Shown here piece by piece: positions 3,286 to 52,245 of a DNA stretch of 64,000 nt; position 1 is the stretch's first letter, and every line of letters begins with the position of its first letter. The DNA comes from Alphaproteobacteria bacterium (GTDB lineage: Bacteria > Pseudomonadota > Alphaproteobacteria > GCA-2731375), in assembly GCA_965225945.1 (NCBI GenBank), contig CBDDBZ010000039.1, positions 96,001 to 160,000 on the forward strand, in the 5' to 3' direction. A program made the position numbers and the translations under genes. A model generated the notes under the pieces. The model did not search any database, was not told the DNA's origin, and saw only the letters and a list, made by a program, of their open reading frames with translations.

Positions 3286-3458
3286 ATGGCGGACGATATT
3301 CGTCAGTGGTTGGAAGAGCTCGGACTCGGCAAGTATGTTGAACTTTTCGCCGAGAATGATATCGACTTGGTCGCCCTGCCGCACATTACCGAAGAAGACC
3401 TGAAGGAACTCGGCGTCACGCTTGGCGCTCGTCGTAAGATATTGTTAAGCGTTCTCGG
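3286..3458 (+). pseudogene. SAM-domain N-terminus (typical of SAM-adenylate/guanylate cyclase proteins), cut by insertions
   Basis: IRQWLEELGLGKYVELFAENDID...EDLKELGVTLGARRKIL; RBS-like GGAGGGAG upstream; IS begins at 3459. Confidence 0.75.
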
Positions 3459-43963: not shown

Positions 43964-44049
43964 CCGCGCCTTTCAAACCGTTGCCGAGGACGCTGCGCCT
44001 CGGCACAATCCAGGCCCGCTTCGTCGTCAACGTCGCCAGGAGTCGCGCC

Positions 44050-44928
44050 ATGAAGATCGGTCTATTCGTCCCCCTGTGCAACCCACACCACACCCCCGAC
44101 TACATTCGCGCCCTCGGCCGCGCGGCGGAGGCGCGGGGCTTCCACTCGCTCTGGCTCGGCGAGCATGTGGTGCTGTTCGACGACTATGATTCGAAGTATC
44201 CCTATGCCGAGGACGGCCGGATCGGCCTCTCGGCGGAGGCCGGCCTGGTCGAATCCTTCACCGCGCTGGCCTTCCTCGCGGCGGAGACCCGCACGCTCCG
44301 TCTCGGCACCGCCATCTGCCTGGTGCCGCAGCGCAACCCCGTCTACACCGCGAAGGAAGCCGCCTCGATCGACTATCTCTCCGAGGGGCGCTTCGATTTC
44401 GGCGTCGGCGTCGGCTGGCTGCAGGAGGAATTCGAGGCCCTGGGCGTGCCCTTCGCACGCCGCGGCGCGCGCTGCGCTGAGTATCTGGAGGTGATCAAGC
44501 GGCTCTGGTGCGACGAGATCTCCGCCCATGAAGGCGAATTCTACCGCCTGCCGCCCTGCCGGCAGTTTCCCAAGCCGGTGCAGCGGCCGCATCCACCGAT
44601 CTATTTCGGCGGTGAAAGCGAGGCCGCGCTGCGTCGCGTCGCCGACCTCGGCGACGGCTGGCACGGCTTCAACCTGACGCCCGAGGCGACGGCCGAACGG
44701 CTCTGGCGGCTGGACGAACTGCTGGCCGAACGCGGCCGCGACCTGAGCGACGTCGATATCACCGTCTCGCCCTATCTGCATCCCGCCGACACGGAAGCGA
44801 TGCGGCGCTATCACGCGGCCGGGGTCGAGCAACTCGTGGTGATGGTGCTGACCCGCACGGTCGAGCAACTGGAACGCCGGCTCGACGACCTCGCCGAGGA
44901 CCTGGTGCGGCCGGCCGCCACGCTCTGA
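44050..44928 (+). CDS. LLM-class (putative F420-dependent) oxidoreductase
   Basis: WLGEHVV, GRFDFGVGVGWLQEEF, PVQRPHPPIYFGG. Confidence 0.88.
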   Translation: MKIGLFVPLCNPHHTPDYIRALGRAAEARGFHSLWLGEHVVLFDDYDSKYPYAEDGRIGLSAEAGLVESFTALAFLAAETRTLRLGTAICLVPQRNPVYTAKEAASIDYLSEGRFDFGVGVGWLQEEFEALGVPFARRGARCAEYLEVIKRLWCDEISAHEGEFYRLPPCRQFPKPVQRPHPPIYFGGESEAALRRVADLGDGWHGFNLTPEATAERLWRLDELLAERGRDLSDVDITVSPYLHPADTEAMRRYHAAGVEQLVVMVLTRTVEQLERRLDDLAEDLVRPAATL

Positions 44929-44987
44929 AGAGCCGCGCTCGGAGCCAAGACTCGAAAGTCGCCGAAGCCGGCCTATCGGCCGGAGAC

Positions 44988-45617
44988 TCAGGACGCGCGG
45001 GCGGGGAAGATCTTGGTGCGGGCCCGGAGCGCCTGGAGAAGGCCGTCGACGCCGTGGCGCTTCACCACGGCCGCGAACTCCGCGCGTTGCGTCACCGCCA
45101 TGGAGACACCCTCCACCGCGACGTCGATGATCTTGTAGTGGTTGTCGATCACGCGGATGCGCCACTCGGCGTGAATTGGCGATCCGCCCGGGCGCTGGAT
45201 CCGGGTCGAGACCACGATGTCGCGCTTGCCGGTGGCCCGCGCGCCGCCGACCTCGAAGCTCTCGCCGGCGTAGCCGCCGAGGCGGCGTGAATAGGTTGCC
45301 AAGGTATATTCCGAGAACAGATCCAGGTAATCGCGCTGCTGTTCGCTGCTGGCGCCGCGCCAATGGCGGCCGAGGGCGAAGCGGGCGATGAAATGAATGT
45401 CGAAACCTTGCGCCAGCAGGCGACGGAAGGCCGCCTCCCGCTGCTCCAGACTGCCGGAGGTCGTGCGCAGCACGGAAATCGCCTGGCCGGCCAGCCATTG
45501 CATGAACTGGGCGGCACCGTCGATCTGGGCTCGAGATGCTGCGGCGTGGGCGGAGTTCCAGAATAGTGCCAGTGCCGGTAGCCCGGCGAGTAAGGCGCGT
45601 CGCGTGGGTCGTCGCAT
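44988..45617 (-). CDS. MlaC/Ttg2D-family periplasmic phospholipid-binding protein
   Basis: RR signal peptide, IARFALGRHWR, IIDVAVEGVSMAVTQRAEF. Confidence 0.85.
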   Translation of the reverse strand: MRRPTRRALLAGLPALALFWNSAHAAASRAQIDGAAQFMQWLAGQAISVLRTTSGSLEQREAAFRRLLAQGFDIHFIARFALGRHWRGASSEQQRDYLDLFSEYTLATYSRRLGGYAGESFEVGGARATGKRDIVVSTRIQRPGGSPIHAEWRIRVIDNHYKIIDVAVEGVSMAVTQRAEFAAVVKRHGVDGLLQALRARTKIFPARAS

Positions 45618-45832
45618 CGTCGCTCGGCCCCCTGACCGATTCGGAACCGCGATTCGCCAAAGTCCGGTCCGCCGGAGAGGCGACGACGCGATTCGGGGAA
45701 GTATCTCAAGAAAACATGGGCCCCGAAAGTCTCTCGACCAGTGATGTCGATCACCGCCTGGACGCGCGAATGCACCGCCGGAGGCGGCCATAGATCATGA
45801 GATTCCGAGTATTGCCAAGTCTTTAACCCGCT

Positions 45833-45868
45833 TGTGGATAATACTGTGGAAAACTTGTTGACAAACAC
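45833..45868. promoter_or_regulatory. Phased DnaA-box-like array and left half of a CtrA-like box
   Basis: TGTGGATAA (45833), TGTGGAAAA (45845), TGTTGACAA (45856); TTGA-N7-TTAAC forms once the IS4 is removed. Confidence 0.55.
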
Positions 45869-47091
45869 CATGGTACACGACGGCATTTACGTAGGACGTT
45901 GAAAAGGTTGTAGGATTCCCGATTCACTCCACGACGAGTCAAGAGGGAAATCATGCGAGACAACCCGATCAACGCCCTGCGTGAGACGCTACGATGCGGC
46001 TTCGCCTTTCGCAAGAGCCGTCTGGAGAGCCTTTGCGTCTTGGTCTTCGGCGTGTTCGTCGCCCGGACGGTGAACCTCTCTCACTTGGCCTGCCACTTTC
46101 CGGGGCGCGCGCGATCCAGCTCCAACTATCGGCGCCTGCAACGGTTTTTCGAGCAAGTCGATTTCGATTACGATCGCCTCGCCGAGTTCCTGGTCGCGAT
46201 GATGGGGCTCCAGGCGGGGCCGTGGCGGCTGACCATGGACCGGACCAACTGGCGGCTGGGTCGCCGCGACGTCAACATCTTGATGATCGGCATCGTCAAC
46301 CGCGCCATCGCCATTCCCGTGTGCTGGCGGGTGCTCGACAAGGCGGGCAATTCCAATACCAAGGAGCGGATCGCGATCCTCGAACACGTCCTCCGGCTCT
46401 TCGGGGTCGACAAGATCGCCAGCCTCCTGGCCGACCGGGAATTCATCGGCGACGCCTGGCTGGCATGGTTGCAGGAAAAGGCCATCCCCTTTCACATCCG
46501 CATCCGATCCAACATCAAGATCGCCAACACGCGTGGTCGCATGGTCAAGGCGAGGGAGCTGTTTCGCGACCTCAAACCCGGGGAAAGCTGCATCCTCTCC
46601 AACGCCAGGCGCCTCTCGGAGGCCAGAAAACCCAAGGCCAGGCCCGTCTTCGTCGCCGCGCTCCATCTCAAGACCGGCGAACTGTTGATCGTCGTGACCA
46701 ACGACGCGCCCGAGGAGGCCTTGGCCATCTACGCCCAGCGCTGGCAAATCGAGACCCTCTTCGCCGCCTTGAAAACCCGTGGCTTCAACCTCGAAGACAC
46801 CCACATGACCGACCCGGAGCGCATCTCCAAGCTCACCGCCGTCCTTTCCATCACCTTCTGCTGGGCGCACAAAGTCGGCGATTGGCTCCACGAGGCCGAG
46901 CCGATCCGCCTCAAAACCCACAAAAGGATGGCAAAATCCATCTTCCGATACGGTTTCGAGTGGATAAGGCGACAGCTCGTCAATCCTATCGACAGGCGTC
47001 AAGCCATTGAGCTGATTCGTTTCCTCGTCCCCGGAAAACCACCAGTCCAGGTGCCCAGGCCAAAGCCAGCATGAACGAGTCGTGTACTGTG
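45869..47091 (+). mobile_element. IS4-family element (transposase 45953-47074) with 9-bp target duplication GACAAACAC
   Basis: Ends CATGGTACACGAC / GTCGTGTACTGTG; duplication at 45860-45868 and 47092-47100; DRT, ADREF, YAQRWQIETLF..LK (YREK motif). Confidence 0.92.
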
Positions 47092-47189
47092 GACAAACAC
47101 TTAACGAACATTTGGCTTACGCATAGTTTTATTTGATCTGGCACGCGTTTTTTGCCTGCTTCCGTTTTTCTGCGAGAGTCGGTTTGCAC

Positions 47190-48425
47190 GCGTTGGCGTC
47201 GAGACCAGTTCTGGGTGGCGACCAAGGCTTCGGGAGGCGGCTTTTTCGGAAGCCGGTTCCCACTGGCGGCGGAAGCCCCGGGAAGTGGATCTCGATCGGG
47301 AAGCGAGAAGTTTCGGCTTCGGACTTTCCGGTGCGGAGCGACGTGTTCTCCGCTGGCGGTGTCGCCGCTTGGATGATGCGATCGCGTCCTAGGTCGGTTT
47401 TCGGATCGGCCGATGGGGTGATCGGATCGCAAGGGCGGCGATAAGACACCGTCGAGGCGAGGCGCATCGCGCCCCAAGCGGCCCTTCGGGGCGGGCGCGA
47501 CGAGCTTCGGTCGGGGGCGGCGCGGTTCCGCGACCCGCGCGGGGAGGGGCTTCCTCGGAAGCTTTGCCTCGCCGGTGCGTGGATCGTCGCCGGAACGTCC
47601 GCCGCGAGGCGGATGCGACCACGGGCTCGGTGTGACGGTGACTTCGGTCGCCGGCGCGCGGGGCGGGTGGACTCCGATCCGGGACCATGCGCGGCGCGAC
47701 ACGGCGTCTTGGGGCGTCGCGACGGGCCGGACATGGAGACCGGAACGCGATACGCCGATCCGACGGTTCTCTCGGGAACCTTCGTGGCGACGTGGTTTCG
47801 GGCATCCCGGCCAGGCGTTCGGTCGCGCGGCGGCTCGTGTCCGTCGTCGCCCTCCTCGGAGGGTGATGTCGGTCGAGGGACGGCGCGGGTCCGGCGAGAG
47901 GCGCAATTTCGGCGCGCGGGAGGCGTCGGAGATGTCGGGTCGATGCGAGGGCGACCTCGTGGCGATGTGGCGGAACCGAGGCGGAACGGGCATCGAGGCG
48001 CGCGAATCGACGGGCGAGACCGAACCGGTGGCGTCGCGTTCGGCGGCGGTGGCATTCTTCGGAATGCGCCGGCGTCGGGGGCGAGGTCGCGCGAGCCGCT
48101 GGGCTCGGACGGGGCAAACCTTCGGGTCGGTCTCGCTCGGGACGGTGGGCGCGAGCCGGGCGGGCACGGCGGTTCGGGTGGAAAGGCGCGCGGCACGGAG
48201 GACGGAAGATCGGGGCTTCGCCCCGGGTCGGCCGGCCAAAGAGGCCGAACGACGGAACGCCCGAAAGCCGACGGCGGTCGAGATCGCGGATTTATCCGAG
48301 ATCGAGACCGCCGCCAGGTACCGCAACGAAGCGCGTGTCGGGAGCGAGAGCAGCTCCTAGGGCGTCGGGCGCACCCCTTCGGGGAGGCGACGCGTGGACC
48401 CAACCACCACGCGACCCGGCGCCCT
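47190..48425 (+). ncRNA. Candidate large structured non-coding RNA (family unrecognised; ends approximate)
   Basis: No credible ORF; at least 12 hairpins with UUCG/CUCG/GCGA loops, long-range helices, G-U pairs only on the + strand. Confidence 0.6.
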
Positions 48426-48702
48426 TACCGTTGCTGCTCATATAGCAATGTTCCCCTCTCTCCACAACAAAATTTTGCGCCTCCGCGCGACCGAACCCCA
48501 ACCTGTTGCGTTTCGGTGTCGGTCAATGCGAAGCGACGGGGCCAATGCGTCGGCCGCGCGGCGGGGCGAAGGAGACCTCGAAAATATCGAACGATGGTTC
48601 GAAAAGCGGCTGCTGGCGGCCCGGAGCCGTGCTAGCATGACGCCCTCCGAGCCCTGAGCGCGGAAAGCGCGACACCGGGCGAGGTCTGGGGAGCACCAAT
48701 AC

Positions 48703-49803
48703 ATGGACTTCATACGGATTTCGGCCGATTCCCACGTCACCGAGCCGCCGAACTGCTACATCGACAACATCGACCCCAAATATCGCGACACCGCACCCCA
48801 TATTCGCCACGACGAGAAGCTGGGCGACATCTACGTGATCGACAAACTCGACATGACGGTGCCGATGGGCCTGGTCGCAGCCGCCGGCAAGGATCCGAGC
48901 GAACTTCGGGCCAAGGCGGCGAGCTTCGACGATCTCCATCGCGGCGGCTGGGACCCGGTGCAGCGGCTCGAAGACCAGGACCGGGACGGCGTCGCGGCCG
49001 AGATCATCTATCCGACCGTCGGCATGCCGCTCTGCAACCACGAGGACGCGGATTACAAGAAGGCCTGTTTCGATGCCTACAACCGCTGGCTCCTGGCTTT
49101 TTGCGAGCGTGCGCAGGACCGCCTGATCGGCTGCGGCCAGACCGCGATTCGCTCGGTCGAGGAGGGCATCGAGGATCTCCGCCGGATCAAGGAGATGGGC
49201 TTCAAGGGCGTGATGATGCCCGGCAGCCCGGTGATGAGCGATTATGACGATTCCATCGACGATCCCTTGTGGGAGGCGGCGATCGACCTCGAGCTGCCGC
49301 TCTCCTTCCACATCCTGACCTCCAAGAACGACAACCTGCACCAGTACCGGAGGCCGAAGATCAACAGCTTCCTGGCCATCATCCGGGGCTGCCAGGACAT
49401 CATCGGGACCTTCATCTTCGGCGCCGTGTTCGAGCGTCATCCCGAGCTGAAGCTGGTCTGCGTCGAGGCCGATGCCGGCTGGGTGCCGCACTACATGTAC
49501 CGCATGGATCACGCCTACAAGCGCCACCGCTACTGGCTGAAGTGCCCGGAGATGGAGCGGCTGCCGAGCGAATATTTCCGCGAGAACGTCTACATGACCT
49601 TCCAGGACGACTGGACCGCCTTCACGTCGACCGAAATGCTCAATCCGAAGCGGTTGATTTGGGCCAACGACTTCCCGCACAGCGATTCGACCTGGCCCTG
49701 GAGCCAGGAGATGCTGGCCGAGCACACGGCCGGGCTGAGCGAGGCGGATCGCCGCGCGATCCTGCGCGGCAACGTCGCCGAGCTTTACGGCCTCGCGGCC
49801 TGA
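48703..49803 (+). CDS. Amidohydrolase 2 family protein
   Basis: ISADSHVTEP, LPLSFH, VEADAGW, WANDFPHSDS. Confidence 0.87.
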   Translation: MDFIRISADSHVTEPPNCYIDNIDPKYRDTAPHIRHDEKLGDIYVIDKLDMTVPMGLVAAAGKDPSELRAKAASFDDLHRGGWDPVQRLEDQDRDGVAAEIIYPTVGMPLCNHEDADYKKACFDAYNRWLLAFCERAQDRLIGCGQTAIRSVEEGIEDLRRIKEMGFKGVMMPGSPVMSDYDDSIDDPLWEAAIDLELPLSFHILTSKNDNLHQYRRPKINSFLAIIRGCQDIIGTFIFGAVFERHPELKLVCVEADAGWVPHYMYRMDHAYKRHRYWLKCPEMERLPSEYFRENVYMTFQDDWTAFTSTEMLNPKRLIWANDFPHSDSTWPWSQEMLAEHTAGLSEADRRAILRGNVAELYGLAA

Positions 49804-49830
49804 GCTCTCGCCAGGCTCGAGGCAACGAGC

Positions 49831-51522
49831 ATGGATTATGATCTGAAGATCATCGGCGGCACCATCGTCGACGGCACCGGCGCGCCCGGGCGCGCCGGCG
49901 ACGTCGCCATCAGGAGAGGCCGGGTAGTCGCCCTGGGGGAGGCGCCGGGCCGGGCGGCTGAGACCATCGAGGCCAAGGACAGAATCGTCGCGCCTGGCTT
50001 CGTCGACATCCACACCCACTACGACGCTCAGATCCTGTGGGACCGGACGCTCTCGATCTCGCCCTGGCACGGCGTCACCTCGGTGGTGATGGGCAACTGC
50101 GGCTTCGGCCTCGCGCCCACTCGGGCCGAGCATCGCGAGCTGATCATGCTGACGCTGGAGAAGGTCGAGGGCATGAGCATCGCCGCGCTCAGGGCGGGGC
50201 TGGGCGCCGATTGGCCCTTCGAGACCTTCCCCGAGTATCTCGACGCGATCGAGCGGGTCGGCTTCGCCATCAACGTCGGCGTGCTGTTCGGCCATACGCC
50301 GCTCAGGATGTGGGTCATGGGCGAGGAGGCGGTGGAGCGCCCGGCCACCGAGGGCGAGATCGCCGAGATGCGGGAGCTGCTGCGCCACGGGCTCAGGGCC
50401 GGCGCGATCGGCTTCGCCACCTCCAGGGCCGGCACCCACGTCGGCTACCGGGGCAAGCCGGTGCCGAGCCGGGTGGCCGAGATCGAGGAGATCTTCGCGC
50501 TGGCCGAGGTCTTGGGCGAGGAAGGCCTGGGCGTGGTGCAGGCCACCGCTGGCCGACAGCTCAGCTTCGAGCAGTTCGCCGAGATCAACCGGCTGAGTGG
50601 GCGCACCGTCACTTGGACCGCGCTGCTGGCGGGCCTGGCGCTCGGCGGCGGCAATCACGAAGACCAACTGGCCCAGACCGATCGGCTGGTGGCCGACGGC
50701 TTCGACGTGGTGCCGCAGGTGACGCCCCGGCCGCTCAACTTCGAATACCAGTTCAAGGCGCCCTTCCCCTTCGAGCCGATGTCGACCTTCAAGGAAGTCG
50801 CGGCGGCCGACTTCGCGGGCAAGAGGCGGATCTACGCCGAGCCCGACTTCCAACGGGCCTTCGCCGTCAAGATGCGCGAGGGGGTCAGGCCGAGCTTCCG
50901 CGACGCCTTCGCCAAGACGGTGATCACCGAGCACGGGCCGGAACCGGAGCTCGCCGAGCGGTCGCTCTTCGAGGTCGCGGGCGAGCGCGGCCTTGAGCCG
51001 GCGGCGTTGGCGCTGCAACTCTCGCTGCTGACCGAGCTCGAGACCCGCTTTCGCATGCCGGTGGCGAACCACGACGAGGATCAGGTCGAGAGCTTGCTCA
51101 AGAACAAGAACACGGTGATCGGCCTGTCCGACGCGGGCGCGCACGCGAGCCAGCTCTGCGATGCCTGTCTGCCGACCTACCTGCTGCAGCGTTGGGTCCG
51201 CGAGAAGGGCGTGCTGGAGCTGGAGGAGGCCGTCCGCATGCTGACCTCGCGACCGGCCGAGGTCTTCGGTATCGAGGGCCGGGGCCGGCTGCGCGAAGGC
51301 GCGGCCGCCGACGTCGTGGTGTTCGATCCCGATCATGTCGGCGCCGGACCCTTGCACCGCGTGCACGATCTGCCGGCGGGCGAGGACCGGCTGGTCTCGG
51401 ATGCGTTGGGCATCGAGGCCGTGGTGGTGAACGGCACGCTCCTGCGCCGGGCCGGCGAGGACGTGGCCCGGCCCGATGGCGCGCTTCCCGGCCGCCTGCT
51501 CCGCGGCGGCACGGCCGATTGA
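49831..51522 (+). CDS. N-acyl-D-amino-acid deacylase family amidohydrolase
   Basis: [28 protein letters not shown]. Confidence 0.88.
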
Positions 51523-51583
51523 AAGCCCGCCCGGCTTCGATTAGAGTGGCGGCCGACGCTGGGCCTTGGGCCTGGCGCTCCGG

Positions 51584-51660
<77 letters not shown>

Positions 51661-51762
51661 ATCTTTTCAAGCGAATATATCAACCGACCAAACTTGTTAC
51701 CGGTTCGAGGATTCCCGAGGCCAAGCGCGCCGCCTTCCGGCGCTGCCCAAGGGCCCGACGGG

Positions 51763-52245
51763 TCACCGGCGGCGGCCGAGTGCCGCCGATACCATCTCCA
51801 GCACCTCCGCCCGCTCGGCGGGCGCCAGGAAACCGGCACAGGCGAGCGCGCGGCCGTGGCTGGCGAGCCGGAGGCAGCCCCGGCCGGCTTCGCCTTCCTC
51901 GCGCTCGACGCGGACCCATTCGGCCGGGAAGCGCCAGCGCTCGACCCGGCCGCCGGGGTGGTGACGGGCCAGCACCAGTTCGTCGCCCTCGACGCTCAGC
52001 CGTTCGCGCAGCCGCGCCGCCCGAGAGCTCAGGTGAAAGGCGAGGGTGATCGCCATGACGCCGAGGCCGAGGAAGCCAAACACTGGCCAGGCGCCGACAG
52101 CCACAAAGACGATTCCGGCACCGAAGCCGATGGCGGAAACCACCGCCATCAGCATCCACAATCCCCAGACCCCGAGGCTTCTGTGCGGCCACATCACCAC
52201 GTCCAGGCCGGCCGCTTCGCCCTCGATCGCCTCGAACCGCTCCAT
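51763..52245 (-). CDS. DUF2244-like membrane protein
   Basis: PHRSL, GAWPVFGFLG, FLAPAER. Confidence 0.75.
   Translation of the reverse strand: MERFEAIEGEAAGLDVVMWPHRSLGVWGLWMLMAVVSAIGFGAGIVFVAVGAWPVFGFLGLGVMAITLAFHLSSRAARLRERLSVEGDELVLARHHPGGRVERWRFPAEWVRVEREEGEAGRGCLRLASHGRALACAGFLAPAERAEVLEMVSAALGRRR

Follow-up and report, generated by a model that had tools for sequence, protein, structure and literature searches.

What occupies the 3-kb stretch that lies between two protein genes, without a credible protein gene of its own, in a 64,000-nt segment of an alphaproteobacterial contig (CBDDBZ010000039.1, positions 96,001 to 160,000; this whole segment is hereafter the window)? The first part of the stretch is an insertion sequence (IS) element. 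The second part, 47190-48425, had been flagged in an earlier note as a candidate large structured non-coding RNA (ncRNA) of no recognized family. Our best reading is that this region encodes a new class of large ncRNA, absent from Rfam 15. The RNA gene and its domains were placed as follows, where G001 and G002 are the genomes of the two other species of the window's genus (g1).

~47185..48436, + strand: RNA gene, ~1,250 nt; the start is placed by the onset of conservation (TTGCACGCG at 47184) and by the promoter, the end by the 3′ junction and by RNA contigs ending at 48423.
47184..47372, + strand: 5′ domain, with the 5′ hairpin ACGC-GUUG-GCGU and the block 47333-47367 (alignments A2 and A5).
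47470..47800, + strand: middle domain of hairpins capped by UUCG, CUCG or GCGA, common to G001 and G002 (alignment A3).
47800..48138, + strand: genome-specific expansion, with hairpins that include those at 47854, 47950, 48057, 48097 and 48113; ~47800-48165 is missing from G001 and ~47880-48140 from G002.
48271..48435, + strand: 3′ domain, consisting of a bulged hairpin (48272-48313), a helix (~48317-48340), the hairpin GGAGC/GCUCC (48340-48358) and a three-way junction (48359-48425).

The region is single-copy in the 6.27-Mb assembly and has a G+C content of 69-76%; on the + strand G outnumbers C (GC skew +0.14 to +0.27). A strand-by-strand folding comparison, which the earlier note had suggested, favours the + strand. 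The predicted free energy of 47184-48436 is −727.9 kcal/mol on this strand versus −664.2 ± 8.9 for 40 dinucleotide shuffles (z = −7.15), and on the − strand −571.2 versus −549.1 ± 9.3 (z = −2.38). The minimum free energy (MFE) structure has 21 hairpin loops, of which 7 are UUCG, 3 CUCG and 2 GCGA, the other nine all being different. The hairpins picked out in the earlier note can each be read where it had placed them and were regained as MFE hairpin loops; loops of the MFE structure include UUCG at 47244-47249, 47311-47316, 47399-47404, 47484-47489, 47642-47647 and 48057-48062, CUCG at 47553-47558, 47770-47775 and 47854-47859, GCGA at 47603-47608, and that of the bulged hairpin at 48290-48295. 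As a word, UUCG is unremarkable in number (18 occurrences versus 12.9 ± 2.8 in 1000 shuffles); it is the pairing around these words that stands out.

Two enclosing helices had also been proposed. The helix 48359-48369/48415-48425 closes the conserved 3′ three-way junction, through GGGCGUCGGG/CCCGGCGCCC. The helix 48011-48023/48127-48139 falls within a multibranch portion of the fold, in a segment that the two closest relatives lack. The region is not a repeat array, as had been stated: a search for tandem repeats in it found none, and its direct repeats are just two, of 14-15 nt. A repeat array or internal duplication was also rejected as the origin of the 340 additional nt in the expansion, which duplicates no other part. 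The expansion is transcribed, since RNA contigs cover it.

Comparison with relatives points to the pairing itself as the property that is kept. A DNA search of 41 related genomes, the window's own included, gave matches in four: the own genome, G001, G002 and, over a weak 54 nt, G012. In G001 and G002 the element again precedes the amidohydrolase gene, in the same orientation. The flanking genes there are 82-86% identical to those of the window, versus 71-76% for the element, in blocks with many indels, and ~260-370 nt of its middle are missing. The three genomes of the genus do not differ at all in two portions: most of 48325-48436, and the block 47333-47367, which forms a hairpin GCGGAG/CUCCGC with the loop CGACGUGUU, followed by GGCG-GUGU-CGCC. 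RNAalifold applied to three sub-alignments found two-sided changes with pairing kept in 10/97, 22/96 (the 5′ domain) and 17/120 (the middle domain) pairs. For the 3′ domain, five sequences fitted to a covariance model were 92.0% paired, with a two-sided change in 29/59 pairs. In 69 distinct sequences, again fitted to the model, 88.8% of the pairs were standard, compared with 37.3-43.4% when the 3′ partners were slid by 1-3 columns; 50/59 pairs had changed on both sides, and the covariation score was 0.388 versus 0.051-0.071, with 0/500 shuffles as high. The helix closing the junction, GGCGUCRGG/CCYGACGCC, is nearly sequence-invariant and is also kept in matches found by the model only. An independent MAFFT alignment of 23 Ruegeria-type RNAs gave 89 pairs, 32 of them with two-sided changes. 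Compensatory changes, which the earlier note had named as a check, were thus seen among the three genomes, in the 5- and 69-sequence sets and among the Ruegeria-type RNAs, and they indicate that the RNA is under selection for pairing.

The RNA is transcribed and abundant; in natural RNA samples it ranks with the transcripts of deepest cover at its locus. The stretch or part of it is contained in 20/24 of the sequencing runs listed, seven of these 20 being recorded as RNA libraries, and four RNA runs were compared with window positions 44000-52000. Two runs of one study gave a 1157-nt contig (47268-48423) at depth 293 and a 975-nt contig (47293-48266) at depth 351.6, compared with depths of 2.5-9.5 for neighbouring-gene contigs of the same organism (0-2 differing letters). 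These metatranscriptome contigs, which do not show the strand, supply the transcript that had been looked for. In a third run of the same study, this sequence was present at depth 6.5-9.5, together with an 886-nt contig at depth 120.5 that extends to ~21 nt from the conserved start. Because the loose ends of that contig spell the G002-type orthologue, a second species also expresses its copy strongly. Two RNA contigs end at 48423, two bases short of the end of the closing helix, and in the bin 48539-48805 the depth is 0-1.6. Contigs of two RNA runs carry an extra G after 47492 (depth 293/293 and 351.6/351.6), and at 47342, 50 nt short of a contig end, one RNA run reads A where the genome has C. 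Strain variation or an assembly error in a G run of the genome may account for these differences.

The RNA is untranslated. Long Arg/Pro/Gly-rich open reading frames (ORFs) run through the region on both strands (424 and 446 aa on the − strand, 261 and 340 aa on the + strand), and a Pfam search of the two longest gave no match. Mismatches between the element and its G002 and G001 orthologues are spread over the codon positions as 54/53/59 and 74/73/69. The same comparison for the neighbouring amidohydrolase gene gave the coding pattern, 22/31/81 and 27/32/94, free of gaps, whereas all 27 gaps in the element alignment are not multiples of three. A coding gene on either strand was ruled out by this lack of codon periodicity, the frame-breaking gaps and the missing Pfam match, and the low-complexity frames are shadow frames, as the earlier note had held.

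Nor does the RNA belong to a catalogued family. Rfam 15 comprises 4227 models, including OLE, GOLLD, ROOL, raiA, HEARO, RNase P, tmRNA, SRP, 6S and group I/II introns; at gathering score, the whole window matched only at a tRNA-Arg (51584). Relaxing the threshold to E up to 10 over 46900-48800 added three chance-level matches, all on the − strand, the best at 19 bits (threshold 70) and none better than E = 1.3. The loci of four relatives (L104, L109, L127 and L097) matched no family, and in one of them (L104, 5600-6250) matches with E up to 10 were at chance level and outside the RNA. The absence of any RNase P, tmRNA, SRP, 6S or rRNA signature, noted beforehand, therefore stands at gathering score both here and in these relatives. 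Specific identities were rejected as well, the genome having its own copies elsewhere: RNase P RNA (RF00010) at G000:C35:399539-399939 with 277.9 bits, where G000 is the window's own genome; tmRNA (RF01849) at G000:C38:366292-366641 with 231.2 bits; and a 6S-like candidate at G000:C1:28950-29108 with 45.9 bits, just short of the gathering score of 46.4. ARAGORN run over 45000-52000 reported the tRNA-Arg and no tmRNA. A − strand word, GGAAAGUCCG (~47317-47326), resembles what we take to be the P4 element of RNase P, but it is on the wrong strand and matches no model. We found no description of this RNA in the literature searched; supplementary small RNA lists (e.g. for Ruegeria pomeroyi) might contain it under another name.

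The family is found in several orders of Alphaproteobacteria, many marine. Its most widely conserved portion is the 3′ domain, in which the 3′-core model R1 and the model R3, rebuilt from five sequences, score 178 and 162 bits (R3, 162.1 at 48271-48435). The window's 3′ domain is among the sequences from which R3 was built, and its match to R3 thus holds by construction; independent support for the window's membership of the family is the covariation in 5 and 69 sequences. R1 and the 5′-core model R2 both match a genome of another genus (G009), in the right order and 880 nt apart, R2 with 49.4 bits. In a further genome (G005), the 3′ core match lies at a contig end. R3 has exactly one match in each of 25/33 genomes of the order: 3/3 in g1, 20/21 in g5, 1/2 in g8 and 1/1 in g4, with none in genera g2, g3, g6 and g7. 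Five more matches, with 71.5, 45.5, 34.1, 30.1 and 27.3 bits, came from a sample of 150 other families of the class, each represented by a single genome.

A pattern describing the junction helix, run against a species-level genome collection, returned 111 stretches. R3 was run on 80 of these (L051-L130, leaving out L131-L161) and confirmed 63, including 22/22 Ruegeria records, one Litoreibacter record, one metagenome-assembled genome (MAG) of Paracoccaceae and many MAGs labelled Alphaproteobacteria or Rhodospirillaceae. R3 did not match the pattern hits in Nitrospirota, Chloroflexota, Acidobacteriota, Rhizobium and Aminobacter, which seem to be chance occurrences. Exact genus-invariant words (22 and 21 nt) were found in none of the genome and metagenome contigs scanned, from which records of the own or near genomes may be excluded.

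Members differ in size. Judged by the distance from the DnaA boxes (see below) to the 3′ end, the RNA measures ~400 nt in Ruegeria, ~600-650 in several MAG clades, 700-1300 in g5 and ~1,250 in the window, whose RNA is the longest member seen. The junction is followed by a U-rich tail in g5, Ruegeria and most other clades, where the two together would double as a + strand intrinsic terminator; genus g1 has no U run after the junction and has CCCUUACCGUUG instead. These tails, the asymmetry of folding between the strands and the RNA-library contigs bear out the large + strand RNA of the earlier note. Two tandem copies with boxes of their own are present at L053, L088, L102, L113 and L127 from the pattern scan and at L048 of G160. 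Tandem modules of boxes plus a ~650-nt RNA lie ~870 nt apart in some MAGs.

The genes around the RNA vary. Upstream is an MlaC-like gene in g1, g8 and G025, and a succinate dehydrogenase subunit gene in G040; downstream are convergent mesaconyl-CoA hydratase-like genes in G040 and G160 and an HpcH/HpaI-type lyase gene in G159. A convergent HtrA-like protease gene flanks the RNA in G009, and an ABC transporter gene does so in Ruegeria faecimaris. Because the flanking genes differ between clades, the boxes belong to the RNA gene and not to a neighbour.

The control region of the window's copy is made up of these features, which are predicted DnaA sites except for the second and the last.

45833..45853, read on the + strand: distal DnaA boxes, TGTGGATAA at 45833 (perfect against TTATCCACA) and TGTGGAAAA at 45845 (one mismatch), 12 nt apart.
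45866..47092, + strand: IS element with a DDE_Tnp_1 transposase gene at 45953-47074 (Pfam E = 6.4e-16), inside the upstream region of the RNA gene.
47088..47125, no strand assigned: proximal box region from scan and alignment, with TGTGGACAA at 47088-47096 (one mismatch, spanning the IS junction) and TTACGCATA at 47117-47125.
47152..47180, + strand: putative promoter placed by alignment only, with a −35 TTGCCT (47152-47157) and a weak −10 AGAGTC (47175-47180), 17 nt apart.

The IS is bounded by an 8-bp direct duplication, ACAAACAC. In G001 the equivalents of 45833-45861 are fused directly to those of 47094 onwards; in the window, native sequence resumes at 47093. Before the insertion, the distal boxes made up the native upstream region of the RNA gene. 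The element is outside the RNA family, yet breaks up its control region. It is multi-copy and transcribed, because its contigs in the RNA runs, which span 45866/45869 to 47091/47092 at depths of 25-68, continue into other flanks at 47091. The right end of the IS and its flank create the new DnaA-like box TGTGGACAA.

Upstream of the RNA in G001 and G002 the order is TGTGGATAA, then TGTGGAAAA or TGTGGATAT, a third similar box, and a facing TTATACACA; we read TTACGCATA in the window as a decayed counterpart of this last box. The layout common to the family is two to four boxes, usually of the TGTGGATAA type, followed ~40-52 bp on by a facing TTATNCACA box. A putative promoter comes next, ahead of a short 5′ hairpin, a run of hairpins that differs in number and length between members, and the conserved 3′ junction with, in most clades, its U-rich tail. 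Boxes are present at 19/20 g5 loci, 16 of which have TGTGGATAG and TTATCCACA 40 nt apart, 737-1357 nt before the 3′ end of the RNA; at the twentieth locus the contig ends 651 nt upstream. The paired arrangement is also seen in 4/5 of the class-level matches, 630-1060 nt upstream, and in Ruegeria a box stands at −440 to −446 in all 20 loci with enough upstream sequence. Overall, among 44 matches with 1350 nt of sequence on either side, a box occurs within that distance upstream in 43/44, versus 9/44 downstream. The DnaA-like sites that had been suspected upstream are thus real here, as predicted sites, and accompany the RNA across the class. The CtrA-like sites suspected with them did not hold up: TTAA-N7-TTAA with up to one mismatch has its sole match in the whole window at 3434.

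A consensus scan of 45600-48800 found no sigma-70-type site and, at the element, no + strand terminator. Alignment of the upstream regions of the clades revealed, ~30-35 nt past the facing box, a T-rich stretch and TTGYNN, separated by 17 nt from a −10-like hexamer (ACGATT, CGATAC, CACTAT or TAACAG across clades; TTGTCA-17-ACGATT in G002). The −10 is followed by a conserved 5′ hairpin, ACGC, a GNNA-type loop and GCGU, and then GAAG, in the window from 47186. Both the −10 and the proximal box of the window are poorer than those of G001 and G002.

Because of the DnaA boxes, we also considered a replication origin. In the 3.8-Mb Ruegeria chromosome G182:C1, sampled in twenty 20-kb windows, the GC skew turns from negative to positive at 590-760 kb and back at 2490-2660 kb; the RNA lies at ~3547 kb and dnaA at 1167 kb. 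On the window's own contig a weak cumulative skew minimum at ~45-50 kb is ~95 kb from the RNA at 143-144 kb, and the dnaA gene is on another contig. An origin is ruled out in Ruegeria by this sampled skew, and is unlikely for the own genome given the skew minimum, the contig of dnaA and a denser box cluster elsewhere. The own genome (6.27 Mb) has 14 perfect TTATCCACA boxes in all and six places with at least two boxes (up to one mismatch) within 120 bp, the RNA locus among them. The densest cluster, at G000:C36:202255-202352, consists of TTATCCACA, then three TTATCCCCA spaced 12 nt, plus near-boxes; this may be an origin or a regulatory site, and the GC skew of that contig has no sign change there. 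Some 45 identical matches to the Pfam family Bac_DnaA (23.8 bits) occur in 246-aa frames across contigs of the own genome; these frames resemble an ATPase helper gene belonging to an IS of very high copy number, presumably of the IS21/IstB family.

The surroundings of the RNA gene include the following features.

44988..45617, − strand: MlaC-like gene (Pfam E = 2.5e-41), the 5′ neighbour of the stretch.
48442..48477, no strand assigned: conserved blocks directly 3′ of the RNA, ATAGCAA (48442-48448) and CAACAAAATTTTG (48465-48477, including the palindrome CAAAATTTTG).
48703..49803, + strand: amidohydrolase gene, the 3′ neighbour of the stretch; a second amidohydrolase gene follows at 49831-51522.

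The blocks at 48442-48477 are common to G001 and G002 and recur in similar form in G009, despite different downstream genes; a protein-binding site or a component of the termination region are possible roles for them. Farther downstream, the tRNA-Arg (CCG) at 51584-51660 has a depth of 41-166 in the same RNA runs.

Taking these results together, we consider it probable that the locus produces a stable, abundant, heavily paired + strand ncRNA of an uncatalogued family, whose transcription is controlled through the DnaA boxes and which acts in trans. DnaA bound at the boxes would set the amount of the RNA, so that the RNA level would report the state of the initiator, and the folded RNA would act in trans as a particle. 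A partner, either a protein or other copies of the RNA, would most likely make contact with the closing helix of the junction and with the 5′ block that is invariant in the genus; the variable UUCG-capped hairpins would be stabilizing expansion segments. A more speculative proposal, which we hold only tentatively, is that the RNA is the effector arm of an undescribed DnaA circuit in which the particle feeds back on replication or growth, whether by binding DnaA or one of its regulators or as a multimeric RNA cage as in ROOL and GOLLD. If true, there would be an RNA link between chromosome replication and physiology in marine Alphaproteobacteria, including sponge-associated bacteria and cultured Ruegeria. 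Few large conserved structured bacterial RNAs lack a known function, and with each of them a new question has arisen for RNA biology. The predicted initiator sites before the promoter in every clade examined provide a concrete regulatory lead, and the compact form of ~400 nt in cultured Ruegeria makes the RNA experimentally reachable; it could prove to be the first RNA member of a DnaA regulon.

Several points weigh against this reading or limit it. The 5- and 69-sequence alignments were fitted to the model and so favour it, a bias that the slid controls carry only partly; part of the 69 rows was moreover collected by a pattern with a fixed closing helix, which overstates the invariance of that helix. 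The 5′-domain model R2 does not transfer to g5, where it has one weak match in 20 loci, so that the case for homology beyond the genus and G009 is built on the 3′ domain together with the arrangement of the boxes and the overall layout. All of the RNA evidence is drawn from assembled contigs, from which neither strand nor ends can be read, and their depth reflects expression poorly. High values were confined to a single study; in the run from a second one the region reached no more than 2.6-6.9. Positions 47204-47267 have no contig cover in this organism, and the abundant species may lack the 5′ hairpin domain or the RNA may be processed; missing cover here and from 48424 onwards is, equally, no evidence of absence. 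Finally, the RNA is abundant in this organism though its boxes have been displaced by 1.2 kb by the IS and the proximal box has decayed, which argues against a strict need for activation by DnaA in this genome; read-through from the transposase gene of the IS, which has the same orientation, could contribute.

The same data bear on other explanations. The RNA might be a base-pairing regulator like CcnA of Caulobacter crescentus but under DnaA, its unpaired stretches pairing with cell-cycle or replication mRNAs and its hairpins only protecting it. Sites for a master cell-cycle regulator at the promoter in all clades would suit such a role, as would conserved loops and linkers such as the loops CGACGUGUU and ACCCAACCA, and CcnA provides an alphaproteobacterial precedent (PMC8959179). 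Lengths of 400-1,250 nt and ~21 hairpins, on the other hand, far exceed the needs of seed pairing, and the best-conserved element is a closed helix rather than an unpaired seed; we judge this explanation unlikely. It is distinctly improbable that the locus acts at the level of DNA, as a datA- or DARS-like cluster that titrates or recycles DnaA, with transcription tuning its occupancy and the RNA a by-product. A box cluster is indeed conserved away from the origin, and the locus is among only six places of the own genome with at least two boxes within 120 bp. However, a by-product would not keep 50/59 pairs through two-sided changes or a fixed 3′ junction across orders; the boxes number only two to four, and here the IS split the cluster without loss of the RNA.

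Very little speaks for the RNA being a long, structured leader at the 5′ end of the two amidohydrolase genes that follow it (48703-49803, 49831-51522). Adjacency and orientation are the same in the three genomes of the genus, but the contigs end at 48423, the depth drops to 0-1.6 over 48539-48805, and the downstream gene reaches 2.5-9.5 versus 293-352 for the RNA. The downstream gene is, moreover, convergent and of another family in G009, G025, G040, G159 and G160, and the relatives end in a terminator-like U tail. The RNA is the leader of no neighbour, and we regard this explanation as highly improbable. Scarcely credible at all is a low-complexity Pro/Arg-rich protein read from the − strand (ORF 47129-48403 or ORF 46986-48326). 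Frames of 424 and 446 aa are indeed open there, but both strands are open, as expected at 72% G+C, and there is no Pfam match and no third-position excess, with 27/27 gaps breaking the frame. In addition, the − strand folds little better than shuffles, and selection acts on + strand G-U pairs.

How does this RNA compare with known systems? Like 6S and CsrB-type RNAs, it is a stable, abundant and highly paired RNA that could hold a protein. Unlike CsrB and RsmZ, it has no repeated GGA loop among its 21 hairpin loops, 10/21 being UUCG or CUCG, and is far larger; it also differs from 6S in being much larger, and the genome's 6S-like RNA is located elsewhere.

To our knowledge, a conserved DnaA-box promoter has not been described for OLE, GOLLD or ROOL. 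The RNA shares with these three that it is a large, intricately folded and conserved bacterial ncRNA without a known job, abundant and found by comparison. It differs in matching none of their Rfam models and in a length that varies ~threefold within the family. No association of the RNA with phage or tRNA was seen. As had been claimed, it is longer than OLE, at ~1,250 nt versus ~600 nt for OLE as given in abstracts. The hosts also differ, being Alphaproteobacteria here versus, going by abstracts and names, Bacillota for OLE and the lake, Lactobacillales and rumen sources in the names of GOLLD and ROOL. Homo-oligomers of OLE, GOLLD and ROOL are reported from cryo-electron microscopy (PMC12286853), and by analogy this RNA may act as a particle too.

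CcnA is short, at 182 nt. It too is an alphaproteobacterial ncRNA with promoter sites for a master cell-cycle regulator; its gene is within the replication origin, and CtrA is presumably its activator (PMC8959179). Unlike CcnA, the present RNA is 0.4-1.25 kb long and, in the single chromosome examined for this, remote from the origin, and it has DnaA boxes and no CtrA box.

The datA and DARS loci of Escherichia coli are non-coding clusters of DnaA boxes outside oriC that titrate or recycle DnaA. As in these, a conserved box cluster lies here off the origin and is tied to no protein gene. We know of no comparable structured RNA gene at datA or DARS; unlike those loci, the boxes here head the gene of a structured RNA that is itself under selection.

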